DNA of 64,000 nucleotides. It comes from an uncultured Gemmatimonadales bacterium. GTDB lineage: Bacteria > Gemmatimonadota > Gemmatimonadetes > Gemmatimonadales > GWC2-71-9. The translations under genes were made by a program, and so were the position numbers. Every line of letters begins with the position of its first letter. Positions within the stretch are counted from its first letter, which is position 1. Below the pieces are notes generated by a model. The model searched no databases. It was given only the letters and a program-made list of their open reading frames with translations, and was not told where the DNA came from. Location of the stretch: positions 178,644 through 242,643 of the forward strand of contig CAWHMT010000004.1 in NCBI GenBank assembly GCA_963830455.1, written 5' to 3'. Of the stretch, positions 10,425-62,137 are shown piece after piece.

Positions 10425-10485
10425 GTGCAGCTAGTTTTTGCAGGTCCTGCTTGTATTTTGGCTCGCCCCGTCACCCGAGTCTTCT

Positions 10486-24340: not shown

Positions 24341-27054
24341 ATTCGGCTTACACCGCCAAGATTCGTGAGCTGACCACCGAGCCCCGGTTCAACACGGAGC
24401 TGACCGACCACTTGCCGGCTGACGCGCGGGTTCCGTCGCCGCTGAAGGTTCTCGGCTACGTTCCGGGAACCGTCGGGCGGCTCTCCTACGTCGCCGACGT
24501 CACGCGCTACTTCCGCGCGCTCGACGAGGCGTCGCCGCGGGTGAAGGTGTTCGACCTGGGCACGAGCGACGAGGGCCGCCCGATGATCGTGGCTGCGATC
24601 GCCGATTCTGCCACGATCGAGCGCCTCGAACAGTATCGCGCCATCACGGCGGCACTGGCTGATCCGCGCCGGCTTTCGGCAGACTCGGCCCAGCGGCTGA
24701 TTGCGGCAGGGAAGGCGATCTACTACGCGTCCGGATCGATCCACTCGCCGGAGACGGGGTCTCCCGAGATGCTGATGGAATTGGCCTATCGGCTGGCGGT
24801 CGAGGAGACGCCATTCATCAGGCAGATTCGCGACAGCATCGTTACACTGATCACGCCAGTGACCGAGGTAGACGGCCGGGATCGACAGGTCGACGTCTAC
24901 CGGTACCGGAAGGCGAACAAGAACATCGGCCCCAATCTGATCTACTGGGGCAAGTACACGGCCCACGACAACAACCGGGACGGGATCGTGATGTCGCAGG
25001 TGCTGACCCGGACCATGATGAAGGCGTTCTTCGACTGGCACCCCACCGTGCTGCACGATCTGCACGAGTCGGTGCCGTTCCTCTATACCTCGACCGGGAC
25101 CGGACCCTACAACCGCGAGCTCGATCCCATCGTCATCACCGAGTGGCACGAGCTCGCGTTCCAGGAGATCACCGAGCTGACCACGCGCGGGTTGCCGGGC
25201 GTGTGGACCCACGACTTCTACGACGGCTGGACGCCCAACTACATGTTCTGGGTGGCGAACGGCCACAACTCGATCGGCCGGTTTTACGAGACCTACACGT
25301 CACGGGGCGCGGACTGCCACACCGTGCAGCTCCCCACGTCGCGCACGTCGGTGGAGTGGTTCCGTCCCAATCCGCCGATCAACGGCGTGCGCTGGTGCAT
25401 TCGGAATAACATCAACTATCAGCAGTCGGCGCTGCTCGTCGCGCTGAACTACATGGCGCGCAACGGCCATCGCTACCTCGACCAGTTCTATCGCAAGGGC
25501 GTGCGGGCAGTCGAGCGCGGACGCGCTAAGGACGGCCCCAACGCATTCCACATTCCCGCGAATCAGGCTCGGCCGGTGGAGGCAGCGAATCTCGTGAATC
25601 TGCTCCGCTTCCACGGGCTGGAAGTGCGGCGCGCGGACCGCGCGTTCAAAGCGGGCGGGATCGACGTCGCCGCTGGGGACTACCTGGTGCTGCTCGATCA
25701 GCCGTACGGGCCGCTCGCCAAGAGTTATTTCAGCAAGCAGGACTACGGGCCAGACGATCCACGTCCCTACGACGACACGGGGTGGACACTGCAGTACGTG
25801 CGCAACGTCGCGCTCAATCCGATCAAGGACACGACGGTGCTGCGCGCGCAGGCGACGCTGATGACCGCCGACGCTCGCGTGCGCGGACAGGTCACGGGAT
25901 CGCGTGGCGGAGCGGCCGCGTACCTGATTGCGCCCACCACCGAGACCGGTCTCATCCAGTTCCGGCTCGCGCTGAGCGACGTTCGGATGTGGGCGAGCGA
26001 GGACACGTTCAACCTGGACGGGCGGCAGTGGGGACGGGGGACGACGATCATCCCGGCGGAAGGGGTGCGCGATCTCAGCGGCCTCACGCAGGCGGCTGAG
26101 TCGCTCGGTCTGAGCGTTGCCGGTGCGCGCGCCATGCCGCGCGTCGCACGCCACGAGCTCGACCTGCCGAAGATCGCGCTCGTGCACTCCTGGCTGAATA
26201 CGCAAAACGAGGGCTGGGTGCGGTACGCGTTCGACGTGCTGCGGATTCCGTACACGTACATCAGCGTGCAGCAGCTCAAGGATCGCGACCTGCTGAAACG
26301 CTTCAACGTGATCATGTTCCCCTTCGTCTCGAACAACGCGCAGTCGATCGTGAACGGCTTGCCGATGAACGGCCCACCGATTCCCTGGCGCCGCACGGCC
26401 GAAACGCCGAACCTCGGCGGCCTCGATTCCACGGATGACGTCCGCCCGGGGATCGGCCTCGACGGTATGACGGCGCTCAGTCAGTGGCTCGACGCTGGCG
26501 GCGTCCTCGTCACCGAGGGTGGCACGTCCGCGGTCTTCACCGATTTCGGCGTCACCCGCGGCGTAGACATCGCACCCGCCCGGCAGCTGCGGGCGTCGGG
26601 CGGGATCTATCGCGCGGTCACGAAGGATGCCCGCAGCCCGATTGCCTACGGATATCCCGATACGCTGGCGGTCTACTTCAATCAGACGCCGCTCTTCCAG
26701 ATCGATACCAGCACGGAAGTGCCAGAGGATCAGGATCCGGGGCTGACGGCCGCCCAGGCCCGCGCGCGCCCGCGCGTGGTGCTGAGCTTCCACCAGAAGC
26801 GCGACTCGCTCCGGCTGTCTGGCCTGCTGGTTAATGGAGAGGAGCTAGCGGGGCGGCCGGCGGTGCTCGATGCCCCCGTGGGCCAGGGGCACGTGGTCCT
26901 GTTCGCGATCCGGCCGTTCTGGCGCTGGGAGACGCAGGGCAGCTTCGCGCTGGTGTTCAACACGATCCTGAACTGGAATGACCTGAACGTCGCCTGGCCG
27001 GCGACACTGAAGCCGAGCACGCGGCCAGTGGCGGCGCCAGACGAGGGGCCTTAG
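24295..27054 (+). CDS. M14-family peptidase-like protein (919 aa), paralog-type of 12579..14942
   Basis: GSIHSPETGSPEML (HxxE) and VTEVDGRD, with overall collinearity to the other M14 gene. Its start overlaps the hydrolase gene by 46 nt, and there is no canonical start further upstream in frame. Confidence 0.8.
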   Translation: MVLAVVAVLALQQSVDSAYTAKIRELTTEPRFNTELTDHLPADARVPSPLKVLGYVPGTVGRLSYVADVTRYFRALDEASPRVKVFDLGTSDEGRPMIVAAIADSATIERLEQYRAITAALADPRRLSADSAQRLIAAGKAIYYASGSIHSPETGSPEMLMELAYRLAVEETPFIRQIRDSIVTLITPVTEVDGRDRQVDVYRYRKANKNIGPNLIYWGKYTAHDNNRDGIVMSQVLTRTMMKAFFDWHPTVLHDLHESVPFLYTSTGTGPYNRELDPIVITEWHELAFQEITELTTRGLPGVWTHDFYDGWTPNYMFWVANGHNSIGRFYETYTSRGADCHTVQLPTSRTSVEWFRPNPPINGVRWCIRNNINYQQSALLVALNYMARNGHRYLDQFYRKGVRAVERGRAKDGPNAFHIPANQARPVEAANLVNLLRFHGLEVRRADRAFKAGGIDVAAGDYLVLLDQPYGPLAKSYFSKQDYGPDDPRPYDDTGWTLQYVRNVALNPIKDTTVLRAQATLMTADARVRGQVTGSRGGAAAYLIAPTTETGLIQFRLALSDVRMWASEDTFNLDGRQWGRGTTIIPAEGVRDLSGLTQAAESLGLSVAGARAMPRVARHELDLPKIALVHSWLNTQNEGWVRYAFDVLRIPYTYISVQQLKDRDLLKRFNVIMFPFVSNNAQSIVNGLPMNGPPIPWRRTAETPNLGGLDSTDDVRPGIGLDGMTALSQWLDAGGVLVTEGGTSAVFTDFGVTRGVDIAPARQLRASGGIYRAVTKDARSPIAYGYPDTLAVYFNQTPLFQIDTSTEVPEDQDPGLTAAQARARPRVVLSFHQKRDSLRLSGLLVNGEELAGRPAVLDAPVGQGHVVLFAIRPFWRWETQGSFALVFNTILNWNDLNVAWPATLKPSTRPVAAPDEGP

Positions 27055-30274: not shown

Positions 30275-32170
30275 ATGAGCGATCTGTTGGCACAGCGGCT
30301 TAGCCAGGCCCTTGGCTCCTCGTTTACGCTGGAAGGAGAGATCGGCCGCGGCGGCATGGGCGTGGTCTATCACGCCCGGGACGAGCGGCTCAAACGCAAG
30401 GTCGCGGTCAAAGTCCTTCCGCCCGAGCTCGCGTTTCGCGAAGAAATCCGCATCCGGTTTCTCCGCGAGGCGGAGACGGCGGCGCGGTTGTCACACCCGC
30501 ACATCGTACCAATTCATTCCGTCGGCGAGGGCCCGGATGGCCTCGTCTATTTTGTCATGGCCTACGTGGATGGTGAATCGCTCGGGGCGCGTCTGAAACG
30601 CCGCGAGCGCCTGCCACCTGAAGAAGCCCGCCGCATCATGATGGAGACCGCCGACGCGCTCGGCGCCGGACACGCCCTCGGTATCATCCATCGCGACGTC
30701 AAGCCCGACAACATCCTGCTGGAAGGGAGCCGCGGCCGCACGGTCCTTACGGACTTCGGCATCGCCAAGGCGCTCACGTCGACCACCGGACCCGGCACGT
30801 TGACAGCCACGGGCGTCGCGATCGGCACTCCGCATTACATGAGTCCGGAGCAAGCGGCGGGTGATCGGGAGATCGACGGCCGCTCCGACATTTACAGTCT
30901 GGGTGTGGTTGGCTATCAGATGCTCGCGGGGGAGCTCCCGTTTTCGGCGCCCACCGTCCCGGGCATCCTCCTCAAGCAAATCACCGAGCAGGCGCCGAAC
31001 CTGATCGACCGCTCGCCGAGCTGTCCCGAAGATCTCGCGTCGTGTGTGATGCGATCGCTCGAGAAGGAGCCAGAGGCGCGCTGGCCGACCGCCGATGCGC
31101 TGCGGCGCGCCCTCGAGTCGCGCAGCGCGCCGCCCTATCGCCCCGCGCGGCGGACCAGTGGCGGCGCAGGTTCGCGTGCCGAGTCCCGATTCGGCGGGCC
31201 ACCGGCCCGGATGTCCGGGGGTGGGCGCCCCCAGGATCGCGTGATGGAGCGTCGCCGCGCGGCCCGGGCGGCAAGGAAGGATCCCAAATCTGACCTCACC
31301 CCGAGCGGTGAGCCCAAGATGGTGGCGAAGTTCCGCGACTCGTTCGTGTCATGGGCGTCGGTCTGCGGCGGCCTCGCGGTTCTCGACCTGATCATGGGCG
31401 GCGGCATCAACTTCGCCCAATGGGTGGCGATTCCCTGGGCCGGCTTCGGGCTGCTGCCGCAGTACATGAAGCTGTGGCAAACCGGTTACTCCTGGCGCGA
31501 CGTCATGAACCGGCCCGCCGCGCCGGACGCGCAGCTGGCGCCTGCGCTCGCCGGCGCGCGACGCAACCTGCCCGCGCCGCAGCTCGATGAGTTCGGCCGG
31601 CATGTCGACACGATTCGGCTCGCGCGCAACGACCGTGAGGCGATTCTCAAGATCATGGAACGCGTTCCGCCGTCGGAGCGGAAACTGCTTCCGGACGTCA
31701 TCGTCACGGTGGACGCGCTGATGAAGCGCGCCGAAGACCTCGCGCGCATGCTGCACGGGATGAGCGCCGACGTCGATGACGGGGCGCTGGCCCGGATTGA
31801 AGCCCGCATCGAGGCGGTCAAGAATCACGAAGAGGGAACCGAGCGGGAGCGCCAGCTGAGCCTGCTCGAGCGGCAGCAGCAGGCGTTGAGCGATCTCCTC
31901 ACACGGCGCAAGCGCGTCGAGGAGCAGATCGAGTCATGCGTGTTGGCGATGCAGAATGTGCGGTTCGACTTGCTGCGGCTGCGCTCGGCGGGAGTGGCGG
32001 CCGTGCTCAGCGACTTGACCCAGGCGACGCAGCAGGCGCGCGCGCTGTCACGCGACGTCGATCACGCCATCGCCGCGGCCGGCGAAATCCGTGACGTGCT
32101 CAATGGGGGGGGGGCTCCCCCTTCTCCGGTGGTTCCGCAGTCCCGGCGCTCGAGGCCCCCGTCCCTCTAA
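30275..32170 (+). CDS. Ser/Thr protein kinase (Hanks type) with C-terminal membrane segment and coiled-coil region
   Basis: GRGGMGVVY, VAVKVL, HRDVKPDNIL, DFGIA and SPEQ motifs. Hydrophobic FVSWASVCGGLAVLDLIMGG...WAGFGLLP follows. The track start is TTG at 30266, with an ATG at 30275. Confidence 0.85.
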   Translation: MSDLLAQRLSQALGSSFTLEGEIGRGGMGVVYHARDERLKRKVAVKVLPPELAFREEIRIRFLREAETAARLSHPHIVPIHSVGEGPDGLVYFVMAYVDGESLGARLKRRERLPPEEARRIMMETADALGAGHALGIIHRDVKPDNILLEGSRGRTVLTDFGIAKALTSTTGPGTLTATGVAIGTPHYMSPEQAAGDREIDGRSDIYSLGVVGYQMLAGELPFSAPTVPGILLKQITEQAPNLIDRSPSCPEDLASCVMRSLEKEPEARWPTADALRRALESRSAPPYRPARRTSGGAGSRAESRFGGPPARMSGGGRPQDRVMERRRAARAARKDPKSDLTPSGEPKMVAKFRDSFVSWASVCGGLAVLDLIMGGGINFAQWVAIPWAGFGLLPQYMKLWQTGYSWRDVMNRPAAPDAQLAPALAGARRNLPAPQLDEFGRHVDTIRLARNDREAILKIMERVPPSERKLLPDVIVTVDALMKRAEDLARMLHGMSADVDDGALARIEARIEAVKNHEEGTERERQLSLLERQQQALSDLLTRRKRVEEQIESCVLAMQNVRFDLLRLRSAGVAAVLSDLTQATQQARALSRDVDHAIAAAGEIRDVLNGGGAPPSPVVPQSRRSRPPSL

Positions 32171-35100
32171 AGCCCTGACCGGCCCAGCAGTCCCGCACCA
32201 AGGCCGGGCCGTTCGCCCGCTGCATCGCGAAATCCAGCAGCTCCACAAACCCCGCCGCCGCGTCTTCGCAGCGGCCGGCCCGTAACGCCGCCACGGCCGC
32301 CAGCTCGCGGTAGCGCGCCGATCCGGGCCGGCGGCTCACGGCGTACCGCAGCACGCTGTCGGCGAGGGCGGGCGGGGCGTCGATGGCGATCTGCCCCAAC
32401 GCCTGGCTCAGAAACTCGCCGGGGAATGGGTGGCGGAACGTTCCGCGCGCGGCGCTCAACGCGCCTCGTGCCTCGCGCGCGGCTTCGTCCCAGCGCTGGC
32501 TCCGGGCGGCAATCAGGGCGAGGGCCGCGCGCAGTTGCGCCGTGTCTCCCCCCGCGGCCAGCGCTTCCCTGAGCCGCACCGTCGCGAGCGGCCTGCTGCG
32601 AACCGCAGCGAGCAGCGCCCGCATCACGAGGGCATCGGAACGCGGGTGGCGGCCCGGCGCGAGCACGGTCTCGAGCAGCGAATCGGCGCGGGCGGTGTCG
32701 CCCATCGCGAGGCGAATGCCGGCCATGCGCACGCTCCACTCCGCGACGTCGGGTTGGGCGCGGCGCGCGCCTTCCAGGTAGGGCAGCACGCCGGGATCGC
32801 CGCGCCGCAGCGCAAGGATGCGCAGCAGCGCGAAGGGCGACGTCCCGTCATCCCGCGTCCCGATCTGCATGAGCGAATCGAACACCGCGTGTGCGGCCGC
32901 TCCGGGATCGAGGAAGCGCCGCGCGGCGACGAACTCGAGCCGCGGACGGTTGTCGGTGTGATCGAACGTGGCCCGCGTGATCAGGCGCGCCACGCCCGAA
33001 TCGCCCAGCAGCATCCGACCGAAGTACTGATCGAGAGAATCGATGCTCAGCCATTCGCGCCCGAGCCCGTGCAGTTCACCGCCCGGTCCGAGCAGCTGGG
33101 CGACCCATTGCCGGTCGTAGGAGATCGGCCGGCCGGACGCGAGCACGACGAGATCGGAGGTGCCGCCAAACCACACATGGACGTGCGGAAAGACCTCGCG
33201 GAGGCTGCGCACGATGCCGGCGACGATCGGCAATGGCAGCTGGTAGAGCTGAATCCATTGACAGAAGATTCCATCGTCGGCGAGGCGCGAGCGGGCGATG
33301 CGAAAGAATTCCGGCGTGTACAGGGTCGCGATGCCCGCGACCCAGGGGTTCGAGGGCTCGGACACGATGACGTCGTAGCGCGTGCGATCGAGCTGCAGCG
33401 CGCTGCGCGCGTCGTCGACCACTGCCGAGACGTTCGGCCGCGCCAGCACGGTGTCGTTCACGGAATAAAACAGGCTGTCCATCTCGAGGACGGCGGGCTC
33501 GATCTCCACGACCTTCACCCGCTGCATTCCCGGCGCGCGCGCGAGGACCTGGGTGGTCACGCCGGTGCCCTGGCCGATGAGAAACGCGGACGTGGCACGG
33601 GGGTGCGCCACCAGCGGCGCGAGGCCGATCATGATCTGCGTGTCCATGTCGCCGCGGTCGGACGCGTCCACCTTGCCGTTCACGCGCAGCGAGCGGCCCG
33701 TCTCGCCTTCCCATACGCTCACGGTGGCATTGGGACCTTCGCGGAACGCCAGCTGGCGGGCGCCGCGGTGCTCGAGAAAGCGCTGCCGCTCCGCCTTGTC
33801 CATGCGCTGACGGGCATAGATCGTGGGACCCAGATCGATCAGCCGCGTGCTCCATCCCGGCGCCGAAATGGCGGCGACCAGGGCGAGCATGCCGAGGATG
33901 CCCCCCGCCAGCACGCGCACCCGCAGCCGCCGATCGTCCGCGCTGGCCTCGGCGATCCCGCGCGCGGCGAGCCCCGCCAGGGTCAGCGCCGCGAGCGCAT
34001 TAATCGCGAGTCCCACGCGCAGCGTCGCCTGGGTTCCCAGGATCACAACGAAGACGAAGCCGGTGAGCACGGCGCCCAGGATGCTGCCCGCGGTATTGAG
34101 CGCGTACGCCGCCCCGACGTCGGCGCCCCGGGCGCGGCGACTGCGCGCCGTGAGATCGGTGAGCAGCGGGAAGCTCATCCCCATGCCAATGGCGGGGATC
34201 AGGACGACCGCACCGACGGCGACGCCCATGAGGACAAGGCGCGCAGCGGCGCTCATGTCGGGGATCTGGAACACGGCGATGATGTAGGAGGGCAGGATTC
34301 CAAAGAACAGGAACAGCGCCGCGGCCCCCACGCCCGTGATCCCCTGGGCGAGCGCGGCACTCGCGGCGGTGTCGGCGCGCGGCATGCTGCGCCGCGCCAC
34401 CATCACGCTGCCCAGACCGATGCCGAGCAGGAACACGAGGAGCACGAGGGTGAAGGCGTAGGTCGATCCGCCCACGATCATTACGAGCACGCGGGTCCAG
34501 GCGATCTCGTTGAGGAGTGAAGCAAACGCCGTGAGTCCGAGCAGGATCAGGGCCACCGTGTGCAGCGGATCGCGCGTTGGTGGAGGCTCCGGCGACGGCT
34601 CGGGAATGGGATCGGCCACAACCTGCGCGCGCCCGAATCGAATGGCCGCGGCGCCGATCGCGAGATTGAGCGCGGCGGTCGTCCAGAGCGAGGCACGCAC
34701 CCCCACGAACTCGATGAGGAAGAATCCCGCGAGGGCGGTCCCCGTCATGGCGCCCAGGGTGTTCAACCCGTACAGCCGGCCGAGCGATGGTTTCAGCAGG
34801 CCGCGGTCCTCGCCCATCAATGCTCGGGTCAGGATGGGCAGCGTACCGCCCATCAGCGTGGTGGGAATCAGCAGCACCAGCGCGGCCAGGCCAAAGCGCA
34901 GGGCGACGCTCGCCACGCCGCCGAGCGCGAGGGCGCCGGCCGTGCCGATGTAGATCGCGTGCGCCAGGGCGAGCACCAGCGGCGAGATGATGCCAAAGAC
35001 GCCGATCGCGATTTCCAGCCAGCCGTACAGCTTCGCCGGATTGCGGGAGCGGTCCGCGACACGCCCGAACAGCCACGCCCCGAGGCCGAGGCCGCCCATG

Positions 35101-35246
35101 TAGGCCGCCACGACGGTCGTGACCGATTGAATCGTCGAGCCGAACGACTGGTAGAGGACGCGGACCCAGAGGAGCTCGTACACGAGCCCGGTGGCGCCCG
35201 ACAGAAAGAAGAGGAAGGTGTAGAGGAGCGCGGGCCTAGAACGCAT
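32100..35246 (-). CDS. Fused polytopic-membrane / spermidine-synthase-like / TPR-like protein
   Basis: The ATG at 35246 gives [31 protein letters not shown]. About 480 aa of transmembrane helices is followed by a methyltransferase-fold SpeE block ([28 protein letters not shown]) and then a helical-repeat tail. The start overlaps the E1 gene stop by 11 nt. Confidence 0.8.
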
Positions 35247-37386
35247 GCAGCTCACGCATGGCCTGCGCGAGATCCTCCACTTGAGGCAGGATGTAGTCCT
35301 CGAGGTCGGGCGCGTAACCGACGAACGTGTCGGTCGACGCGACACGCTTCACGGGCGCGTCGAGCCACGGAAAGCACTGATCCGCGATCCGCGCCGCGAT
35401 CTCCGCGCCGTAGCCCCACGAGAGCGCGTCCTCGTACGCGACGATCACGCGGTTGGTCTTGCGAATCGACGCCGCGATGGTCTCCCAGTCGACGGGCGAG
35501 AGGGACCGGAGATCGATGACCTCGACGCTGATCCCGTCCTTCTCCTCGACCTCCTTCGCCGCCACCAGCGCGCGCTGCACCACGGCCCCGTACGTCACCA
35601 CGGTCACGCCGTCGCCATCGCGGGCGACGCGCGCTTTGCCGAACGGGATCATGAAGTTGGGGCCGGGATTTGGAGCCTTGTTGTAGGTCTGGCGGTAGAG
35701 GTGCTTGTGCTCGAGGAAGATGACCGGGTCTTCGCAGCGAATGGCGGTGCGCAGCAGGCCATTCGCATCGAGCGCGGTGGCGGGACAAATGACCCGAATG
35801 CCGGGCACGGAGGTAAACACGACCGCGCCCGTTTGCGAGTGGTAGACGGCGCCACCCTTCAGGTAGCCGCCATACGTGACGCGCACCACGACCGGCGCGC
35901 TGAATTCATTGTTCGAACGCCAGCGAATCGTGGCGAGCTCGTTGCGCAGCTGGTGATACGCGGGCCAGATGTAGTCGAAGAACTGGATTTCGACGACCGG
36001 CTTCAGCCCGCGCGTGGCGAGCCCAATCGCGCGGCCCACGATGTTCGCTTCGGCCAGAGGCGAGTTGTACACGCGGTCGCTGCCGAACTGGCGCTGCAGC
36101 CCCCAGGTCACCTTGAAGACACCGCCCTTGCCCTTCACTTCTCTGAGGTACTGCTCGCGACTCACATCGGCGACGTCTTGCCCGAAGACGAGGATGCGCG
36201 GATCACGCGCCATCTCGTCTTTCATGGACGCGTTGAGCAGATCCACCATGGTGGTGGGCTCGCCGGTAAAGTGCGGATCGTCTTCGGTGTCGAACTGCTC
36301 CGATGTCGGATCCACATCGGGCGAAAACACGAACCGCAACGCCGATTCCGCCTTGGGCTGGGGCGATGTCAGGGCCATGTCGGCGGCGACCTGAACGTCC
36401 TCTTCCACCTGAGCCTGGATCGCCTGGAGCTCCGATTCGGTGGCGACACCCTCCTCGAGCAACCGCCGAGGGAACGTCGCGACGGGATCGCGCCTGGCTT
36501 CCTCTTCACGCTCGCGCGCAGGCTTGTAGAGGACTTCGTCGTCCGACAGTGAATGCGAGTACGGACGGGTCACGTGCGCATGGACCAGCGCCGGACCCTT
36601 GCGCTGGCGGCACCACTCGGCGGCGCGGGTCAGCACGTCGTAGGACGCGATCGGATCGCAGCCGTCCACTTCCTGCACCAGCAGGTTCGGAAAGTTGGAC
36701 ACCAGCTTCGACACCGAACCCCCGGCGGTCTGCACCTCGATCGGGACGGAGATGGCGTAATTGTTGTCTTCGATGAGAAACAGGACGGGCAGCTTGAGAT
36801 TGCTGGCCGTGTTCAAAGCTTCCCACCACTCCCCCTCGCTCGTCGTGCCGTCGCCCGCGGAGCAGTAGACGACTTCGTCTCCCTGGATCGGCTTGTCCTT
36901 CAGCTCGTCGATGCGGTGGTAGCGGAGCCACGCCTCAGCGCATCCGACGGCCTGGAGAAACTGGGTGCCGGTCGGGCTCGATTGCGTGACGATGTTGAGC
37001 TGCTTGTGGCCCCAGTGCGACGGCATTTGGCGCCCGCCGGAGTTCGGATCCTCGGCGGCGGCCACGCCCGAAAGGAACATCTCGGTCGGCGTCATCCCGA
37101 GCGTGAGGCAGAGGGCCCGATCGCGGTAGTAGGGATAGAACCAGTCGTAGCCGGGGCGGAGCGCCTTGCCGGCGGCCACGAGCACGCTTTCATGACCCGC
37201 GCCCGAGATCTGGAAAAAGATCTTGTTCTGGCGCTTGAGCTGGATCTCCTTGTCGTCGATCCGGCGCGACAGAAACATGAGCCGATAGATGTCGAGCAAG
37301 TCGGCCTTGGAGAGTGCCGACGTGCTTTTCGGAGTCCGGGATTGCGAGGGCGCGGCTTTGCTCGCGGTGCGGGGACGGGTCGCCAT
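35236..37386 (-). CDS. 2-oxoacid (branched-chain/pyruvate type) dehydrogenase E1 component, fused alpha+beta subunits
   Basis: 716 aa with the TPP motif [17 protein letters not shown]...IEDNNYAIS in the N-half and a transketolase-like beta half ([16 protein letters not shown]). Confidence 0.88.
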
Positions 37387-52126: not shown

Positions 52127-52588
52127 TCATTCGAGCGTTGAACGCTCGGGCGCGGCCTGACGGGCGTACGTTAGACCGCGCATCGTGCTGTAGGCGAAGA
52201 TGAGCATGCCGGTAACGCGAATCAGCTGGCCCACGAGTTGGTCGTGATCGAGCAATCCCACCTCGCCGAGCAGGTAGGTCCAGTCATGCTCGCCCCCTCC
52301 GACCAGTGGGAGCTCCTGGGCCTGCGCGTCCTGCGCATACCTCGCGACGTTCCAGAGATTCTGCGCGACCCACCATGCGGCGACGGTCGCCGCGTGACGA
52401 TCCGGTCGTCGCCAGAAGTACCAGACGAAGGCAAGCGGGAAGAGCAACTGCAGGAGCGTGCCGCCAAGCACACCGACAAACTCGCCGAACGGTCCGAAGA
52501 CCAGATGACCGGTTTCATGGATGGCGAGATCGACGTTGTCGAGCAGGCCGTAGTGGTCCGGAACGACGAGATAGTACAGGCCATACAC
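52127..52588 (-). CDS. Small integral-membrane protein with HExxH motif
   Basis: 153 aa. AIHETGH sits next to hydrophobic helices (LGGTLLQLLFPLAFVWYFW, VTGMLIFAY). It has a GTG start, and the hydrophobic reading frame is also open upstream. Confidence 0.6.
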   Translation of the reverse strand: MYGLYYLVVPDHYGLLDNVDLAIHETGHLVFGPFGEFVGVLGGTLLQLLFPLAFVWYFWRRPDRHAATVAAWWVAQNLWNVARYAQDAQAQELPLVGGGEHDWTYLLGEVGLLDHDQLVGQLIRVTGMLIFAYSTMRGLTYARQAAPERSTLE

Positions 52589-52632: not shown

Positions 52633-53625
52633 CTATTTCCAGCCCCGCAGGCTGCGCACGAAATCATGCAGCACCAGGAATTTCTCGTACAGGCGCACGC
52701 CTTTGCGCTTGCGGCCGAACTCGGCGAACAACTCGCGGAGACGGCCGCGGCGCGTCACGTAGAACCGGAACGTCTCGGCGAAATCCTCCTGCGGATGCGT
52801 CGCGGCGTACGCGCTCACGTAATCGGTGAGCGTCGTGGCGATCCGGCGCCGCTCGAAGTCCACCCAATGCTCGTCCGCGACGCGATACGCCTTGCGCACT
52901 TCGCCGAAGGCGCGGCGGAACCGGCCAGAACGCGTCCAGGACCAGTGATGGTAGAGGAAGGAGTGACCGAGCTCATGCAGGAGCAGGCCCGTGAGCATGT
53001 TCCACGAGATCTCGTCGCGACGCCGCTTCCCCGTGACGTAACGGCGATCGAGCTCGATCACCTTGGGCGCGCGCGGCGCGACGCCTGACACGCCGGGACG
53101 GAGCGCGACGCGGTACTGCCAATCGCGAATCCGGGAGACGATGAGCAGACGGCGCGCCCGTCGCAGCGCGCGCGGGATGAGGTCCCGCCCGGTCGCGTCC
53201 TCCCCGCACCAGGGGCAGGTGGCCATCCAGTCGTCCACACCGCGATCGCAGCGCGGGCACGAGTTCTGGAAGTGATCGTAGCGCCACGACTGCGCGCGCC
53301 CGCACCAGGGACAAAAGCGCATCGGGTACATCACGCCGCCGCCGCAGCCCCAGTCGCAGCGCGCGTGGAATTTGAAACCCTTGGGCGCCTTGAGCGGCTC
53401 GTCGCTGGAGTCCTTGTCCTTGATATCGCGGCCGCACCACGGACAGAACGACGAGGCGTCCGACACCATCCAGCCGCAGTAGGCGCATTCCGCCCCGGTC
53501 TCGCGCTGGGTGTCTTCCCATTCGAGCCGGCGGCTGCAGCTCGGGCAGTAGCTCCAGAACCGCTCCAGCTCGGTATGGCAGTGGGGACAGCGCAGCTCGG
53601 GGGTCGGCACCTCGCGACGGCTCAT
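52633..53625 (-). CDS. Four-zinc-ribbon N-domain fused to a putative zinc metallopeptidase (HExxH ... EDFAE)
   Basis: Cys pairs are CPHC..CPSC, CAYC..CPWC, CDWGC..CPWC and CPRC..CPWC, followed by LLHELGHSF and HPQEDFAETF. ATGA overlap with the ATP-grasp gene. Confidence 0.75.
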   Translation of the reverse strand: MSRREVPTPELRCPHCHTELERFWSYCPSCSRRLEWEDTQRETGAECAYCGWMVSDASSFCPWCGRDIKDKDSSDEPLKAPKGFKFHARCDWGCGGGVMYPMRFCPWCGRAQSWRYDHFQNSCPRCDRGVDDWMATCPWCGEDATGRDLIPRALRRARRLLIVSRIRDWQYRVALRPGVSGVAPRAPKVIELDRRYVTGKRRRDEISWNMLTGLLLHELGHSFLYHHWSWTRSGRFRRAFGEVRKAYRVADEHWVDFERRRIATTLTDYVSAYAATHPQEDFAETFRFYVTRRGRLRELFAEFGRKRKGVRLYEKFLVLHDFVRSLRGWK

Positions 53626-54620
53626 CGCGCCAGCGCCTCATCCACGATGCGTTGGATGAACGCGTTGTATTTGAGCCCCGACTTCTTGGCGGCCTCCGCC
53701 AGCTCGTGCTCGTCGGCAATGAACGGATTGGGATTCACCTCGAGGACGTACACCTCGTCGTCGTGCGCGAGGCGCACGTCCACCCGCCCGTAGTCCTGCA
53801 GCCACAGGGCGTGAAAGGCGGTGCTGCAGATCTCCCCGATGCGGGTCGTGAGCTGCTCGGAGACGCCTTTGGCGAAGACGTTCTTGATCTGCTTTTTCTT
53901 GCGGTACTCCTCGTCCCACTTGGCCTTGTATGTCGCGATGCGGTGCTCGCCGATTTCGGGCTCGCCGAACGTCATCTCCGTGAGCGGCAGCACCTCGAGC
54001 TCGTCGTTGCCGATCAGGCCGACGTACACCTCGCGGCCTTCGACCAGCTCCTCGACGATCGCGGCCTGATGGTACTTGGTGTGGATGAACTCGATCCGCT
54101 GTTTCAGGCTCGCGTCGTCCTCGACGACCGATGCCTGCGCGATGCCGATCGACGCGTCCTCGAGCAGCGGCTTGACGATGAGCGGGAACCGCAGCTCGGA
54201 CGGGCGCACCAGCTCGTCGCCTTCGTGGAACTCGGCGAACGCCGGCACCCGGATGCCGTGGAAGGCGAGCACTTTCTTGGTGAGCGACTTGTTGCGCGCG
54301 ACGAGCAGCGCGGTGGGAGAGGAGCCCGTGTAGCGATAGCCGTACATGTCCAGCAGCGCCGCGATCGCATATTCGTGGCGTGCGTTCTTGCGAAAGCCCT
54401 CGCAGCCGTTGAACACGAGCTTGGGCTGGAACGCCGCCAGCTTCGTGAGCAGCGGCACGACGTCATCGCCGATGCCGATCATCAGGACGTCGTGCCCGCC
54501 GGCCATCAGCGCGCGCGCGACATCGTACTCAGCCTCCTCGACCTTTTGATCGATCTCGTGCTTGAACGCCGCGTCATCCCACTCGGGGTGCAGCGAATCG
54601 AAGATGACGGCGATTCTCAT
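53622..54620 (-). CDS. ATP-grasp ligase of the D-Ala-D-Ala-ligase-like family (not a canonical Ddl)
   Basis: 332 aa. FPLIVKPLLEDASIGI, EELVEGREVYVGLIG and YVLEVNPNP fit the ATP-grasp fold. The N-terminus lacks the Ddl GGxSxEHEVS motif. Confidence 0.85.
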   Translation of the reverse strand: MRIAVIFDSLHPEWDDAAFKHEIDQKVEEAEYDVARALMAGGHDVLMIGIGDDVVPLLTKLAAFQPKLVFNGCEGFRKNARHEYAIAALLDMYGYRYTGSSPTALLVARNKSLTKKVLAFHGIRVPAFAEFHEGDELVRPSELRFPLIVKPLLEDASIGIAQASVVEDDASLKQRIEFIHTKYHQAAIVEELVEGREVYVGLIGNDELEVLPLTEMTFGEPEIGEHRIATYKAKWDEEYRKKKQIKNVFAKGVSEQLTTRIGEICSTAFHALWLQDYGRVDVRLAHDDEVYVLEVNPNPFIADEHELAEAAKKSGLKYNAFIQRIVDEALAR

Positions 54621-54629
54621 ATCATCTCC

Positions 54630-56039
54630 TCAACGTCCACCGGAGACGTGGAGGTCGAGTGCACTCACCCGCCGCATGTCTCGCCGTACGCTCGTGAGTC
54701 CGATGAGGATGATCACGCCGCCCAGGAACCCGACGGCCGGTAGGAGCAGCATCGCGCCCCGCAGGCTGCCGGTACGGTCCGAGAGATAGCCGATGAGGGG
54801 AGGCGCCAGCGCGTCGCCCGCGAGGTGCGAAAACAAGACAAACGCCCCCAGCACCGATGCCTGGACCGCCGGGGGGACGACATCGAGAATCACCGCGATC
54901 AGTGGACCGTTGTACCAGGTATAGAAGAAATACGTCGCGAGAACAAGCGGCGTGAACCAGCGGAGATCGTCAACGAGGAGCAACAACGCGCAGACCGGGG
55001 CACCGAGCACAAATCCCGCGCCGGACGCGAGCACGCGACCGCCAGGCCACCGCTGCTGCAGTCGATCGGCGAACCGCCCGCCTACCAGCGCGCCACCGAC
55101 ACCGCCGACAAGGGCCCAGAAGCCGAATTCAGAGCCCACGCGCGCGACTGAAAGGCCGTGCACCCGCTGCATGAACGCCGCCGCCCAGGCGATCAGTCCG
55201 TTCACGGCGAATGTCACCATGGCGCCGCCGAGAAAGACCCAGATGAGCGTCGGCGTGCGCAGCACCAGCACCGCGGCGTCCTGAAAGTCGTCGAACGCCC
55301 CCGCGGCGACTGCGCCAGCCGCGGTCGTGCGTCCCACGGCCAGCGGCACCAGCCGCCAAACCGTCCACGCGATGCCGGCGCTCACGCCCACACCAAACAC
55401 GGCCGTGCCAATGAGAGGGGGGATGCCCTCAAAGAGCGCCAGCAACGCCGCGATGGCGGCCCCGACTCCCGCGCAGATGGCGAGCGGCGCGACATACTGC
55501 GTGACGCCATGCATGCCGTGTCGCCACCACCCGCGAAGAGTCTCGACGATGGGGGGGGGCGGCCGGCGATCCAGCTCGCGCAGCCGCGATGCGAGCAAGG
55601 CGAGGACGAGTCCCGGAAATCCCATCCAGATGAATGCCCAGCGCCACCCGTAGCGCTCCGCAATGATGCCGCCGAGCCAGATCCCAAGGACGCCACCGAG
55701 CGCCATGCCCACCGAGTAGATGCCGATCGCGAACGCGCGCCGGCGGCCCTTGTAGTACTGCGCGATGATCGCCTGCGACGCCGGGCCGTAGCCCGCTTCG
55801 CCGAATCCCACGAGCGCGCGGCAGGTGAAGAGCTGCCAGAAGTGCCGAACGAATCCACCGGCCGTGGTCGCCGCGCTCCACACGGTGACGCCCCACGTGA
55901 TGACGGCGCGCCGGGAACGGAGATCGCCGATCACGCCGAGCGGCAGCGCGGCGAGCGACAACACGATGATGTACGCGGAGCCGAGCCATCCGAGCTGCGC
56001 GTCGGTGAGGTTCAGCTCGCGCTTGACCGGCTCGAACAC
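54630..56039 (-). CDS. MFS transporter (Spinster-like); true N-terminus probably extends to about 56165
   Basis: The track ORF starts at GTG 56039, but the same frame upstream encodes AYAAYVLGLLTLVNLLNYLDRNVVYA (TM1 plus the MFS N-terminal motif) with no ATG/GTG/TTG. A CTG at 56165..56163 has GAGG 6 nt upstream. Confidence 0.8.
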   Translation of the reverse strand: MFEPVKRELNLTDAQLGWLGSAYIIVLSLAALPLGVIGDLRSRRAVITWGVTVWSAATTAGGFVRHFWQLFTCRALVGFGEAGYGPASQAIIAQYYKGRRRAFAIGIYSVGMALGGVLGIWLGGIIAERYGWRWAFIWMGFPGLVLALLASRLRELDRRPPPPIVETLRGWWRHGMHGVTQYVAPLAICAGVGAAIAALLALFEGIPPLIGTAVFGVGVSAGIAWTVWRLVPLAVGRTTAAGAVAAGAFDDFQDAAVLVLRTPTLIWVFLGGAMVTFAVNGLIAWAAAFMQRVHGLSVARVGSEFGFWALVGGVGGALVGGRFADRLQQRWPGGRVLASGAGFVLGAPVCALLLLVDDLRWFTPLVLATYFFYTWYNGPLIAVILDVVPPAVQASVLGAFVLFSHLAGDALAPPLIGYLSDRTGSLRGAMLLLPAVGFLGGVIILIGLTSVRRDMRRVSALDLHVSGGR

Positions 56040-56145
56040 CGCGTAGACGACGTTGCGGTCGAGGTAATTGAGCAGGTTGACCAGCGTCAGCAGGCCCAGG
56101 ACGTACGCGGCGTACGCCCTGGTGGGGGTGCCGGACTTCGCGGTG

Positions 56146-57282
56146 TCAGGTCGCGCGGCCGCCAGTTGCCGCCTCGGCGCGCGCGTCGCGATCCTCTTTG
56201 GCCTCGAGATAGGAATCGGTGAGCTCGCGCATCATGTCCGCGCGCCTGTGGTACAGGCGCTTCAGCGTCCGGGGCTTGCGCCGGGCCAGCGCGTACGCGG
56301 CCAGTATGGGAAACGCGACGGTGTTGTCGAGATACGCCACAACGGTGCCGGGCAGCTTGTCCGGATCCACCTTGCCCCAGCTCACCGCCTCCGCCGGCGT
56401 CGCTCCCGAGAGGCCGCCCGTGTCGGGACGGGCATCGGTCAGCTGGAGGTAGTAGTCGTGGCCCTTCTCGCTGATGCCGAGCACTTCCTGAATCTGCGGC
56501 TCGGTTTGCAGCACGAAGTTCTTGGGACTGCCGCCGCCGATGATCAGCACGCCGCTCTTGCCGCCGCGCACCTTGGCCGAGAACACGATCGACGAGGTCT
56601 CGTTCACGTCGGCGCTCACGTCGAAGCGCAGCTTGCTTCCCGAGAGGGCCTGCTCGGCGACGTTCATCCCGATCGACGAATCTCCGGGCGAGGACGTGTA
56701 GATCGGCACCGCCGCGGCATGCGCCGCGCCGAGCACCGATTTCCGCGTCAGCCCGAGCGCCTGCTCACGCTCCAGCACGTAGCCGCCCAGCAGGTAGTGG
56801 TATTCGGCGGTGCTCATGGGCCGCTGAAATTCGGGCCGGGCCGAGACATCGCGGACGAAGCGGTCCGTCGACAGCAGGACGTCGTAATCGAAGAAGACGT
56901 CGTAGATCCGCACGACGCCCTCTTCACGCAACACCACGTCGTCGGCGAACGGCGTGCCGCGATGCATCGCCATGCCCAGGCCGAAGTGCGCATCGTGATA
57001 CAGATTCGCGCCGGTGGACACCATCCAGTCGATGAATCCCGCTTCGATCAGCGGGATCATCGTCGACATGCCGAGTCCCGCCGGGGTCATCGCACCGGTC
57101 AGGCTCATCCCGACGGTCACATCGTCTTCGAGCATGCGCTCGGCAAACAGCCGGCAGCCTTCGCTCAACCGGCCCGCGTTGTACGCCAGAAACGCGTTGT
57201 CGACGAGCTCGGCGACGGTCTCTTTGCCGGTGACCGGCTTCGGATTGATGCGCTGGCCGCGCAGGTATTCGTTTTGGGTCAT
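56146..57282 (-). CDS. Deoxyhypusine-synthase-like protein (DHS/homospermidine-synthase-like, NAD-dependent aminobutyl transferase family)
   Basis: The ATG at 57282 (MTQNEYL) forms an ATGA overlap with the LOG gene. [23 protein letters not shown] and GGGSPKNF are DHS-family blocks. Confidence 0.85.
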
Positions 57283-58049
57283 CGTGTGCTCTGGCTTTTC
57301 GATTGCATGGCGCGGAACGCGCGCGTGCGCCGTTCCCGAGCTTCCACGATCCACCCGAGAGCTTCCTTGGGGTCGTCGGTCACGAGGAAGAGATTCAGGT
57401 CTTCCGGTGCGATTTTGCCCTCTCCCGCCACCCGCTGTTTGAGCCAGTCAGCCAGGCCACCCCAGTACGCGCGGCCGAACAGCACGACCGGGAATTGTTT
57501 CACCTTGCCCGTCTGGACCAGGGTCAGCGCTTCGAACAGCTCGTCCATGGTGCCGTAGCCGCCGGGAAAGGTGATGAATGCGGTCGAATACTTCACGAAC
57601 ATCGTCTTCCGGACAAAGAAGTAACGGAAATTGATCGAGCGCTCGACCCACCGGTTGGTGCCCTGCTCGAAGGGCAGCTCGATGTTGCAGCCGATCGACA
57701 GCCCGCCGCCTTCCTTGGCGCCGCGATTGGCGGCTTCCATGATGCCGGGGCCGCCGCCGGTGATGATCGCAAAACCCTCTTTGGCCAGCATCCGGGAGGT
57801 CTCGCGTGCCGCCTCGTAGTAGGGATCGCTTTCGGCCGTGCGCGCCGAGCCGAACACCGTCACCGCGTTGCGCACATCGGACAGCGTATCGAACCCCTCG
57901 ACGAACTCGCCCATGATGCGCAGCACGCGCCACGGATCGGTGCTCGTGAAGGAAGCCCGCCGCTCGACCGGAACGGTCTGCGGCGCTGTGAGGAGTTGTT
58001 CGTCTTCAGTGAGCGGGCTGCGCGGCGAGGCGCTCGGTTGCTCTGACAT
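57279..58049 (-). CDS. LOG-family (TIGR00730) Rossmann-fold protein
   Basis: [19 protein letters not shown] and [12 protein letters not shown] motifs. The start is ATG 58049 (AGGA 5 nt upstream) or 58055. Either overlaps the upstream gene by more than 40 nt. Confidence 0.85.
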
Positions 58050-59175
58050 GGTCATCCTGCACGTTATAGAAGAAAGGCGAGAACCGGACGTGACCAGGCC
58101 GCGTGTCGGCGATGATGCCGCCCGCGGCCAGGTGCCGGACACTGGCTCCGGGATCGGGCATGGGAACCATGACGATGGCGGAGCGGTCCCGAGCGTCAGC
58201 GGCGACTTTCGGCTTGAAGCCCGCCGCCCGCAAGGTCGCGATGAGATCCTCGGTCAGCGCCGCGGTCACATCCCGGATGGCGGGAACGCCGATCTCCTCG
58301 ATGTACTCGAGACCACCGAGCTGCGCGTAGACCGCGGCGAGCGCCGGCGTGCCGAGCTCGAAGCGCCGCGCGCCATCGTGCAGCGTCAACGCGCGCGGAT
58401 CGAAGGCGAACTGCTCGCGCTGACCGAACCAGCCGGAGATCCTGGGCTCGAGGCGCCGGGCCACGGCCTCGCGCACATAGAGGAAGACGATGCCGGGCCC
58501 TCCGAGCAGCCACTTGAGACCGCCCGCCACGAGCGCATCGACGCCGGCCTGCTGCACGTCGACCGGGACCTGACCGACCGATTGGTAGGCATCGATCAAA
58601 CACAACGCGCCGTTCGCATGCGCCACGTCCGCCACCCGCTTGATGTCCTGAATCGCCCCGGTCGTGAAGTACACATGGGAGGTCACGACGAGCGCGGTCC
58701 GATCATCGACCGCGCGCGCGATCGCTTCGACCGGAACGCTGATCTTGTCCGGACTCTCGACGATCACGAGCTCCACGCCGTGCTTCGCCTTCGCGAGCCA
58801 CTGGTAGGCGACCGTGGGGAAATCGAGCGCGGTGACGACAACTCGGGGCCGGCGGCTGTAGTCGATGGACTCGGCCACCGCACTCAGCGCCACCGAAATG
58901 CTCGGGGCAAGGGCGATATCGTTGGCGGTGGCGTTCACGATGCGCCCGTAGCGAGCGCGCAGATCGGTCAGCGCTTCCCACCACACGTCATACCATGCCG
59001 CCGCGCCGCGCCGCTGCCAGATGTCGAGGAATTCGGCTACCTTGCGTCGAGACCGCTCACCCAGTGCGCCCAGCGAGCAGGTGTTGAGGTAGACGGTGTC
59101 CTTGAAGATTGGAAACTCGCCCCGGTACGAGGCGAGTCCGAGCGCGCGCGGTGTCACGCTGCTTGCGAGCGTCAT
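58006..59175 (-). CDS. Class-V aminotransferase-fold PLP-dependent enzyme (cysteine desulfurase / kynureninase-like)
   Basis: 389 aa. FPIFKDTVYLNTCSLG, LVVTSHVYFTTG, LIDAYQSVG and GGLKWLLGGPG (PLP lysine region). Confidence 0.8.
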   Translation of the reverse strand: MTLASSVTPRALGLASYRGEFPIFKDTVYLNTCSLGALGERSRRKVAEFLDIWQRRGAAAWYDVWWEALTDLRARYGRIVNATANDIALAPSISVALSAVAESIDYSRRPRVVVTALDFPTVAYQWLAKAKHGVELVIVESPDKISVPVEAIARAVDDRTALVVTSHVYFTTGAIQDIKRVADVAHANGALCLIDAYQSVGQVPVDVQQAGVDALVAGGLKWLLGGPGIVFLYVREAVARRLEPRISGWFGQREQFAFDPRALTLHDGARRFELGTPALAAVYAQLGGLEYIEEIGVPAIRDVTAALTEDLIATLRAAGFKPKVAADARDRSAIVMVPMPDPGASVRHLAAGGIIADTRPGHVRFSPFFYNVQDDHVRATERLAAQPAH

Positions 59176-60646: not shown

Positions 60647-62137
60647 TCACCGCGCCGCAACGCGCGACACCACCTCGTAATAGAACCGCACGCCCGTGCG
60701 CAGCGCGTCGATGCTGACGCGCTCGTCGTTGCCGTGCACGCCCCGCGAATCGGCTTGCGTGAGCGGGAACGGGCCCAGCCCATAGCTCGCGATCCCCATC
60801 CGCCGGAAGTAATGACTGTCGGTGAAGCCGGCGAGCATCAAGGTCGTCACGAGCGCCTCGGGGTGACGTTGCCGCGCCACGTCGGCGATGGCGCGGAACA
60901 TCGCCGTTTCCGTCGAGCTCTCCGTCGCGGGCCAGTTCGGGCCCTGCGGCTTCACCGTCACGGCGGTATCGCCGATGACGCGCACGAACTCGGCGAGAAA
61001 CGCGGCCGGGTCCTGTCCGGGAAGGAGGCGCACGTCGACGGCCGCCGTCGCGACCGGAGGGATCACGTTGGTCTTGTTGCTGCCCTTCAAGCCCGTAATG
61101 GAGATGGTGTTCCGCAGCAGCGCGTTGTAGGTGAGGTCGCTCGTCAGGACGCGCACCGCCGTGGAATCGCGCAGCGCCGCGCGGATGTCCGACAGCCAGC
61201 GCCGTACCGTGGTGTCGCGCTCGATCGTCGCGAGATCGCGGAACGAGCGCTCCACGGCCGGGGTCACGATCAGCGGCGTCTTCCACTCGGCAACCCGGTT
61301 CAACGCCCGAATCAACCGGTGCACGGGATTGTCGGGCGTCGGCCGGGAACCATGGCCGGCGGTACCGCGGGCCGTGATGTCGAGCCAGAACGGCGACTTC
61401 TCGGTCGTGCCGATGCCGTAGAACTCGACCGCCCCTTGACCGCCGGCCTTGGCGCGGGTGAGCCCGCCTTCGTTGAGCAGGAATTCGGCCCCGCGCACCA
61501 AGTCGGGTTTTTGCTCGGCGATCCAGACTGCACCGACGCCCGCGCCGATCTCCTCATCTGAAGTCGCCAGGAAGATGATGTCGCGCTTGAGCGGCACTTT
61601 GGCCCGCTTCAGGATCAGCATCGTCATGAGCTGCGCGATGCCCTCGCCCTTCATATCGAGCGCGCCGCGACCCCAGACGGAGCCGTCCTTGATCACGCCG
61701 CCGAACGGATCCACCGTCCAGAATTCGGGTGATGCGAGCACGACGTCCATGTGATTGAGCAGCACGATCGGCCGCGCGGTGCCATCGCCCGCGAGCCGGG
61801 CGTAGAGATTGGCCTTTCCCGGGGCTGGTTCAAAGACCTGCGACTCGATGCCCTCGCGCCGCAGCACCTCGGCCAGCCAGCGCGCGGCCACGATCTCGTT
61901 GCCGGGCGGATTCGTCGTGTTGATGCGCAGGTACTGCGACAGGAGGGCGGTCGCTTCGTCGCCCAACGCCTTCCAGTCGCCCTCCACCGGCGCCGCCATC
62001 AACGCGGCGCGGGCGGGCGTCACCAAGACCGGCGCCGACGAGGGCCCGGCCAGCGGTGGCACCGGCCGCCGTGCGCACGCGCCAATCAGCAGCGCAGCCG
62101 CCAAAGCCCTCGACCAAGCTCCACCAACCTTCACCAT
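60647..62137 (-). CDS. M20/M25/M40-family metallopeptidase (lipoprotein)
   Basis: ALLIGAC lipobox, LLNHMDVV, GRGALDMKG and ATSDEEIG motifs. Confidence 0.85.
   Translation of the reverse strand: MVKVGGAWSRALAAALLIGACARRPVPPLAGPSSAPVLVTPARAALMAAPVEGDWKALGDEATALLSQYLRINTTNPPGNEIVAARWLAEVLRREGIESQVFEPAPGKANLYARLAGDGTARPIVLLNHMDVVLASPEFWTVDPFGGVIKDGSVWGRGALDMKGEGIAQLMTMLILKRAKVPLKRDIIFLATSDEEIGAGVGAVWIAEQKPDLVRGAEFLLNEGGLTRAKAGGQGAVEFYGIGTTEKSPFWLDITARGTAGHGSRPTPDNPVHRLIRALNRVAEWKTPLIVTPAVERSFRDLATIERDTTVRRWLSDIRAALRDSTAVRVLTSDLTYNALLRNTISITGLKGSNKTNVIPPVATAAVDVRLLPGQDPAAFLAEFVRVIGDTAVTVKPQGPNWPATESSTETAMFRAIADVARQRHPEALVTTLMLAGFTDSHYFRRMGIASYGLGPFPLTQADSRGVHGNDERVSIDALRTGVRFYYEVVSRVAAR

Follow-up and report, generated by a model that had tools for sequence, protein, structure and literature searches.

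A conserved LOG-speY gene pair and its variable neighbours in Gemmatimonadales

We examined a 64,000-nucleotide stretch of DNA from an uncultured Gemmatimonadales bacterium (contig CAWHMT010000004.1, positions 178,644 to 242,643; hereafter the window; 66% G+C), in which seven co-directional minus-strand genes run from 59175 to 52127. Among them are speY, encoding a homologue of deoxyhypusine synthase (DHS), and, directly upstream of it, a gene of the LOG family. On balance, we favour a reading in which LOG and speY are an old pair to which lineage-specific genes have been added, the operon having probably grown by accretion instead of encoding a dedicated seven-enzyme pathway. This reading is carried by the phyletic pattern, in which only the LOG-speY pair is invariant and the remaining genes of the array vary independently of one another. 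What is new is the arrangement of a gene of known kind, speY, in an unstudied order, and within that arrangement the conserved LOG-speY pair.

Gene content and junctions of the array

Two metagenome contigs in ENA (L001 and L002) match the window at 99.1-99.6% identity, and the labels on close relatives of its proteins read Gemmatimonadetes or Gemmatimonadales. The array and its divergent neighbour are made up as follows, in the order of transcription for the minus strand:

58006-59175, minus strand: class-V-fold pyridoxal 5'-phosphate (PLP) enzyme, kynureninase-like, 389 aa (Pfam Aminotran_5, 4.8e-36)
57279-58049, minus strand: type-II LOG, nucleoside 5'-monophosphate phosphoribohydrolase family, 256 aa (PF03641, 1.3e-33)
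56146-57282, minus strand: speY, DHS-like homospermidine-pathway enzyme of the diagmatine synthase family, 378 aa (PF01916, 3.2e-66)
56163-56176, minus strand: putative ribosome-binding site and start codon of the next gene (GAGG, 6 nt, CTG, with the CTG at 56165-56163), within the 3' end of speY
54630-56165, minus strand: Spinster-type major facilitator superfamily (MFS) transporter, about 511 aa if the CTG at 56165 is its start (Pfam MFS_1, 2.1e-46)
53622-54620, minus strand: Ddl-like ATP-grasp amide ligase, 332 aa (Pfam Dala_Dala_lig_C, 1.1e-28)
52633-53625, minus strand: Mx, 330 aa, a cytoplasmic protein combining several zinc ribbons with a Peptidase_Mx-like HExxH domain at its C-terminus
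52127-52588, minus strand: small, lineage-specific membrane protein with an HETGH motif, 153 aa, called as a gene on both L001 and L002
59462-60388, plus strand: queG (epoxyqueuosine reductase), a divergent neighbour outside the unit that served as a synteny control (Pfam QueG_DUF1730 and Fer4_16 on the intact copy of L001 and L002)

We compared this locus across 80 species-level genomes, all Gemmatimonadales and with SpeY proteins 77-96% identical, counting a gene as present or absent only at loci long enough to judge. LOG lies directly upstream of speY in every assessable genome (78/78). The MFS gene is present in 73 of 76, the PLP gene in 65 of 73, Mx in 61 of 68 and the ATP-grasp gene in 56 of 72, the remaining 16 keeping LOG-speY without the ligase; the 153-aa gene occurs in only 2 of 60 genomes, and the full seven-gene form is rare. 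The six-gene form is complete in 37 of the 80 loci, and contig ends cut some of the others. Losses of the PLP and ATP-grasp genes are uncorrelated, and the genes occur in a patchwork of sets: MFS-Mx lacking the ligase, LOG-speY-Mx, LOG-speY-ATP-grasp-Mx (L176), LOG-speY-MFS only, and LOG-speY alone. At loci that lack the PLP gene, queG directly abuts LOG or an opposite-strand NDH-2 gene occupies the PLP position. As the additional genes appear to have been gained and lost independently, we regard them as accessory.

A long contig from the Gemmatimonadaceae reduces the array to LOG-speY, joined by an ATGA overlap and standing alone between oppositely oriented genes, namely a phosphodiesterase gene on the upstream side and a DUF4198 gene on the downstream side; further out, synteny with the window persists, with queG on one side and the genes for DAO, thiolase, FadB and proline dehydrogenase on the other. 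The LOG-speY junction is itself tight: of 86 loci, 39 show a 4-nt overlap, and all but two have a distance of at most 27 nt. Since LOG-speY stands alone in Gemmatimonadaceae and is invariant among the assessable genomes of the 80, we take the core of the array to be a two-gene operon of LOG and speY. The original prediction on this locus, made from the window alone, had proposed a search for co-occurrence of DHS-like, LOG and ATP-grasp genes; the search returned the PLP-LOG-speY trio without the ligase module, an outcome named in advance as counting against a joint pathway, and co-occurrence of trio and module does not go beyond what shared descent would give.

Conservation at this depth calls for a caution of its own, because queG, which is unrelated in function, lies beside the operon in 67 of 67 genomes and is as conserved as LOG; persistence of neighbours among these genomes thus also reflects plain descent.

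Within the window, the junctions are as the original prediction described them: the PLP stop at 58006 lies beyond the LOG ATG at 58049, giving a 44-nt overlap, and an ATGA (57282-57279) is common to the LOG stop and the DHS start. The DHS stop codon occupies 56148-56146, and the MFS frame is already open upstream of it. A 9-nt spacer with GGAG separates the MFS and ATP-grasp genes, a further ATGA overlap joins ATP-grasp to Mx, and 44 nt lie between Mx and the 153-aa gene. No terminator-like site was found in the minus-strand intergenic gaps of the array, a search for Rfam elements, including a riboswitch upstream, returned no match at E <= 1, and repeats look like chance matches. The same strand, the short or overlapped junctions and the lack of an intrinsic terminator between genes are the features expected of an operon from 59175 to 52127. 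The predicted single transcription unit therefore holds as regards co-directional, tightly coupled genes with terminator-free gaps, and from this architecture we infer that they are transcribed together.

Such packing is the rule in this genome. In the gene calls for the neighbouring DNA, all 13 same-strand pairs of neighbours outside the array are at most 23 nt apart and 9 of the 13 overlap, and one tightly packed run joins the unrelated genes for a thiolase, FadB, proline dehydrogenase, a hypothetical protein and the RsgA GTPase. Overlap between genes is therefore weak evidence here for a shared pathway.

SpeY, LOG and their relatives in other lineages

The DHS-like protein of the window scores 541.4 bits against the NCBIfam model NF001980 ("homospermidine biosynthesis protein"; cut-off 450), covering model positions 1-349 of 350. 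It keeps the lysine of the WGK motif, its SWGKV aligning with SWNKI of the archaeal DHS 8put, and we take this lysine to be the catalytic residue. In both respects it resembles the SpeY proteins of characterized homospermidine clusters (PMC13625781), including the Thermus thermophilus enzyme (PMC10981699).

According to a 2026 paper in the Journal of Biological Chemistry, bacterial DHS homologues of this kind, found in diverse phyla, couple two agmatines to give N1,N9-bis(guanidino)homospermidine, which a SpeB-like ureohydrolase or a homologue of agmatine iminohydrolase then converts to homospermidine; speY clusters usually contain an arginine decarboxylase (ADC) together with such a ureohydrolase or iminohydrolase, and unrelated folds have been recruited repeatedly as ADC (PMC13625781). 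That paper does not mention LOG, aminotransferases or Gemmatimonadota (PMC13625781), and our literature search found no title or abstract dealing with polyamines of Gemmatimonadota. In contrast to the known clusters, in which speY accompanies ADC and a diagmatine ureohydrolase or iminohydrolase, speY of the window is coupled to an upstream LOG gene and a downstream Spinster-type MFS gene.

Judged by family membership, the SpeY protein of the window most likely couples agmatine. The assignment of a DHS-like enzyme linked to homospermidine in the original prediction agrees with this, as do its class-V PLP fold and LOG phosphoribohydrolase assignments with our searches, but the transfer of an aminobutyl group from spermidine or putrescine that it proposed gives way to the coupling of two agmatines described for the SpeY family (PMC13625781). 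SpeY would use bound NAD to join two agmatines into N1,N9-bis(guanidino)homospermidine, and conversion of this product to homospermidine would fall to a ureohydrolase or iminohydrolase with its gene elsewhere in the genome. LOG would be co-expressed with speY, often through the ATGA overlap, with no sign of a shared substrate. The family to which the window belongs would then have gained the kynureninase-like PLP enzyme upstream and, downstream, the Spinster-type transporter, coupled to speY and probably started at a CTG; the Ddl-like ligase, the zinc-ribbon/HExxH hydrolase and the small membrane protein would be further additions downstream.

For more distant lineages, an exhaustive HMMER search returned 349 representative clusters at E <= 1e-30, from which eight representatives (37-68% identical) were looked up. 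None of these eight speY loci has an adjacent LOG, class-V PLP, MFS or ATP-grasp gene, and four of them adjoin a gene for a pyruvoyl or AR-fold decarboxylase, an arginase-fold gene, or both. Two representatives that pass the NF001980 cut-off illustrate this, P0124 adjoining an AR-fold decarboxylase and P0131 a pyruvoyl arginine decarboxylase (ArgDC) together with an arginase-fold gene. Natural fusions of agmatinase to SpeY and of an AdoMetDC-like protein to SpeY also occur (P0269, 698 aa; P0264, 581 aa), which lends Rosetta-stone support to an agmatine-based SpeY pathway.

Two kinds of unusual speY locus were also noted. On one metagenomic contig (L087, 2413-5575) an arginase-fold gene lies between two DHS-like genes, with a pyruvoyl arginine decarboxylase gene just upstream, forming a duplicated speY cluster. 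Two SpeY homologues are split by inteins: P0121 (645 aa; L106, 193-2130) and P0137 (725 aa) both carry Intein_splicing/Hint domains, P0137 with an HNH endonuclease in addition, and both align to residues 1-294 of the window SpeY, with the inteins after that point.

LOG of the window passes TIGR00730 (154 bits, cut-off 96) and fails the equivalog for cytokinin riboside 5'-monophosphate phosphoribohydrolase, NF058542 (57 bits, cut-off 300). Its matches in the PDB are 5zi9 (the best, at 2.6e-80), 5wq3 and 1wek, in the range of 1e-67 to 1e-80; 5zi9 and 5wq3 are LOG chains of 260 and 264 residues, the latter being the type-II protein Cg1261. Both GGGPG (as GGGPGIME) and PGGYGTMDE are present, and model, motifs and N-terminal extension agree in placing the protein in type II. 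Cg1261 of Corynebacterium glutamicum (5wq3; PMC5379747) and TT1465 of T. thermophilus (1wek) share with it the N-terminal extension and the GGGPG/PGGxGTxxE core. On this evidence it is an ordinary type-II LOG, predicted to free the base of nucleoside 5'-monophosphates by hydrolysis.

The genomic setting of LOG in Gemmatimonadales differs from that of its relatives: in the window LOG heads a two-gene operon with speY, whereas type-II LOG of Actinomycetota usually neighbours dapE. Type-II LOGs 46-61% identical to it occur in Actinomycetota, Burkholderiales, Bacteroidota and Chlamydiota, and eight type-II LOG loci of other phyla hold no DHS-like gene within 4-5 kb on either side. In a broader scan seeded with diverse type-II LOGs, which yielded 80 loci (L107-L186) 46-81% identical to the window LOG, a DHS neighbour was found at five, all Gemmatimonadales-like. 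Two of the five (L164 and L176) hold other genes of the array, and the other three have SpeY proteins 65-68% identical and come from the lineage of the long contig described above, its proteins being labelled Gemmatimonadaceae, Gemmatimonadales or Gemmatimonadota. The dapE gene adjoins LOG in five of the 80 loci and in two further actinomycete loci.

In Actinomycetota, the order is dapE, then a type-II LOG, then a second LOG-like gene (Tsukamurella, L097, 2824-5250; Nonomuraea, L102; and the five among L107-L186). We also noted queG-LOG on Neochlamydia pS13 (L099, 2699-4669) and tgt-LOG in Collinsella (L098, 2525-4636). Queuosine genes beside type-II LOG in three unrelated lineages prompted us to consider a role for LOG in queuosine or 7-deazaguanine salvage, which we rejected as a general pattern: queG, tgt, queC or queD lies near LOG at only two of the 80 broad-scan loci, both from Gemmatimonadales and both also holding accessory genes of the array, and our literature search found no paper linking LOG to queuosine.

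The MFS transporter and its start codon

In the PDB the MFS protein matches HnSpns best (6e8j, 1.1e-32), with human SPNS1 and SPNS2 next (range 1.1e-32 to 1e-21), and no polyamine transporter is among its matches there; SPNS2 is the relative in the PDB with a named substrate, sphingosine-1-phosphate. Its first transmembrane helix carries an NYLDR motif, which we take to be typical of the Spinster family, and we know of no bacterial substrate for a Spinster-family transporter. Unlike HnSpns, SPNS1 and SPNS2, the transporter of the window appears to be translationally coupled to speY, apparently through a CTG start.

GTG 56039, the first canonical start, comes only after the conserved first transmembrane helix (AYAAYVLGLLTLVNLLNYLDRN), and the window contains no ATG, GTG or TTG in the MFS frame upstream of that helix. 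Because the helix precedes GTG 56039 and the frame is open across the DHS stop, the MFS start must lie in or beside that stop, as originally predicted. Among 75 related loci (surveyed in L003-L082), a CTG is the only candidate MFS start in 53. Counted back from the last base of the speY stop codon, this candidate CTG is found at 13-25 nt, in most loci at 19 nt. Most of the 53 have GGAGG or CGAGG some 6 nt ahead of it, and in most its CT comes from an ACT or TCT codon in the frame of speY, followed by a G. At 16 loci a canonical start (GTG, ATG or TTG) takes its place, overlapping the speY stop or lying just past it. The pattern argues for translational coupling of the two genes and for CTG initiation, with the MFS gene probably starting at the conserved candidate CTG inside the end of speY. 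If this start is true, the MFS gene model on L001 and L002 (469 aa from the GTG) is truncated, beginning 42 codons late, and the CTG would correct it on both near-identical contigs.

Alternative explanations and the rest of the window

Three sets of observations weigh against accretion around LOG-speY and need to be set beside it. First, neither the 64-kb window nor the sequence up to 10 kb from speY at the 80 GTDB loci yielded a gene for ADC, agmatinase or agmatine iminohydrolase (tblastn with pyruvoyl ArgDC, AR-fold decarboxylase and arginase-fold queries; Pfam over the window), so the canonical partner enzymes of SpeY in Gemmatimonadales are assumed rather than seen and would have to be encoded elsewhere or replaced by something unrecognised. 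Second, the adjacency of LOG and speY, often ATGA-joined, outlasts complete replacement of their immediate flanks. Third, MFS (73/76) and Mx (61/68) are kept in about 90% of genomes or more, Mx matching speY in its conservation (71-96% identity across the 80 loci), which hints at selection on the additional genes in the operon context. The comparative data, moreover, come from one order, in which descent and function are inseparable.

These observations can be read as signs that LOG and speY form a true functional pair peculiar to Gemmatimonadales, extended in some families by the MFS transporter, the ligase and the HExxH hydrolase. LOG would then act in a variant agmatine or diagmatine route, or the operon would make and export a modified guanidino-polyamine that replaces the scheme of ADC, SpeY and ureohydrolase. 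We consider this unlikely.

The narrower proposal that LOG and SpeY cooperate in an undescribed way, LOG replacing the missing partner step or supplying the substrate of SpeY, draws on the invariance of the pair across Gemmatimonadales families even where every flanking gene differs, and on the absence of ADC and agmatinase from a neighbourhood in which four of the eight distant speY loci have such genes. Against it stand the properties of LOG itself, which keeps the motifs of its family and shares about 50-60% identity with type-II LOGs from phyla without a nearby DHS-like gene; the restriction of DHS neighbours to the Gemmatimonadales-like loci among the 80 of the broad scan; the lack of LOG at all eight distant speY loci; and the confinement of the pairing to one order, in which the unrelated queG is equally conserved. 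We know of no LOG chemistry that acts on guanidino or amino groups. Cooperation of this kind is, in our estimate, improbable.

We give equally little credence to the array as a single pathway for the synthesis and export of a polyamine amide conjugate, which the original prediction put forward and in which SpeY would provide a polyamine, the ligase would link this to either an amino acid or an acid, the HExxH proteins would trim the conjugate or recycle it, and the MFS transporter would export it. The seven co-directional genes with overlapped or very short junctions, the probable translational coupling of speY and MFS, and the presence of the six-gene form in most genomes of the window's family all fit such a pathway, as does the occurrence of ATP-grasp homologues in small-molecule clusters elsewhere: in Thioflavicoccus, a homologue lies with DABA transaminase, SbnA, SbnB and KamA. 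The phyletic pattern speaks against it, with the ligase absent in 16 of 72 LOG-speY genomes, often with MFS and Mx still there, the PLP gene absent in 8 of 73, the two losses uncorrelated, only LOG-speY present in Gemmatimonadaceae and none of the additional genes beside speY at the eight distant loci. Tight packing, being genome-wide, does little to offset this, and the transporter resembles Spinster proteins instead of polyamine transporters.

The ligase, too, fits the conjugate poorly. No Ddl model of NCBIfam is passed (best score 128 bits, cut-off 243), the matches to Ddl in the PDB are at about 1e-19, and the Pfam matches listed are to Ddl-, RimK- and generic ATP-grasp families, which supports membership of the Ddl-like branch and nothing more specific. 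The system of glutathionylspermidine synthetase and amidase, to which the conjugate pathway had been likened, resembles the array only in its general logic of an ATP-dependent amide ligase and a hydrolase near polyamine chemistry; the ligase of the window is Ddl-like and dispensable in the genomes just mentioned, and in place of a CHAP amidase the array has an HExxH hydrolase. Mx matches DZR and Zn-ribbon families as well as Peptidase_Mx (5.3e-13) and has no homologue in the PDB or in the plasmid collection we searched, and the 153-aa protein matches no Pfam or NCBIfam model. The closest homologues of the ATP-grasp and PLP proteins in other phyla lie in unrelated contexts; in the plasmid collection, matches to these two are 30-38% identical and again in unrelated contexts, and matches to DHS are at most 33% identical.

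The PLP enzyme stays below the cut-off of every specific NCBIfam model (kynureninase TIGR01814, 96 against 246; SufS, 104 against 475), and can be assigned no further than to the class-V PLP superfamily. In the PDB it best matches the Pseudomonas fluorescens kynureninase KynU (1qz9, 1.8e-32, about 30% identity), with which it shares the fold and the position of the aligned PLP lysine; it differs from KynU in being shorter (389 against 416 aa), in failing the equivalog and in having no tryptophan-pathway genes nearby. That it is a recruited ADC supplying agmatine to SpeY, like the neofunctionalised decarboxylases of other speY clusters, is very improbable and ranks below both the LOG-SpeY link and the conjugate-export model: its gene heads the operon, where ADC stands in other lineages, no ADC was found nearby and unrelated folds have repeatedly taken on the ADC role in other cases (PMC13625781), but its nearest relatives are enzymes of the kynureninase and C-S lyase type and not decarboxylases, its homologues in other phyla adjoin RidA and FAD oxidoreductases or sit in secondary-metabolite clusters, and the gene is missing from eight of 73 genomes and from Gemmatimonadaceae, all of which have speY.

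The growth of the operon by accretion around LOG-speY thus remains the reading we prefer, with the genes of the array probably not sharing a pathway. The SpeY route to homospermidine has only just been worked out, in clusters with ADC and a dedicated ureohydrolase or iminohydrolase (PMC13625781), and an abundant order of soil bacteria maintains speY in another arrangement that is stable, behind LOG, often before a Spinster-type MFS gene, and with the partner enzymes not nearby. Gemmatimonadales therefore offer a concrete place to ask whether the homospermidine pathway can be wired differently; if it is not, their arrangement cautions that in compact, high-GC genomes a common pathway need not follow from gene overlap.

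Elsewhere in the window, the fused membrane/spermidine-synthase-like gene that had been noted about 20 kb from the array does exist, as a minus-strand gene at 32100-35345 for a 1048-aa protein with a Spermine_synth domain. It shares 11 nt with the end of a gene for a fused 2-oxoacid dehydrogenase E1 protein (E1_dh and transketolase domains; 35236-37386, minus strand), making another tight pair without obvious shared function. A 1-nt insertion at 59648 relative to L002 frameshifts queG of the window and reflects either an assembly error or a pseudogene. The window is also rich in peptidases, with S9, two M14, M28 and M20 members (10438-14942, 19823-21349, 24295-27054 and 60647-62137), and the N-terminus of the M20 protein is hydrophobic and signal-peptide-like (…LLIGAC…).

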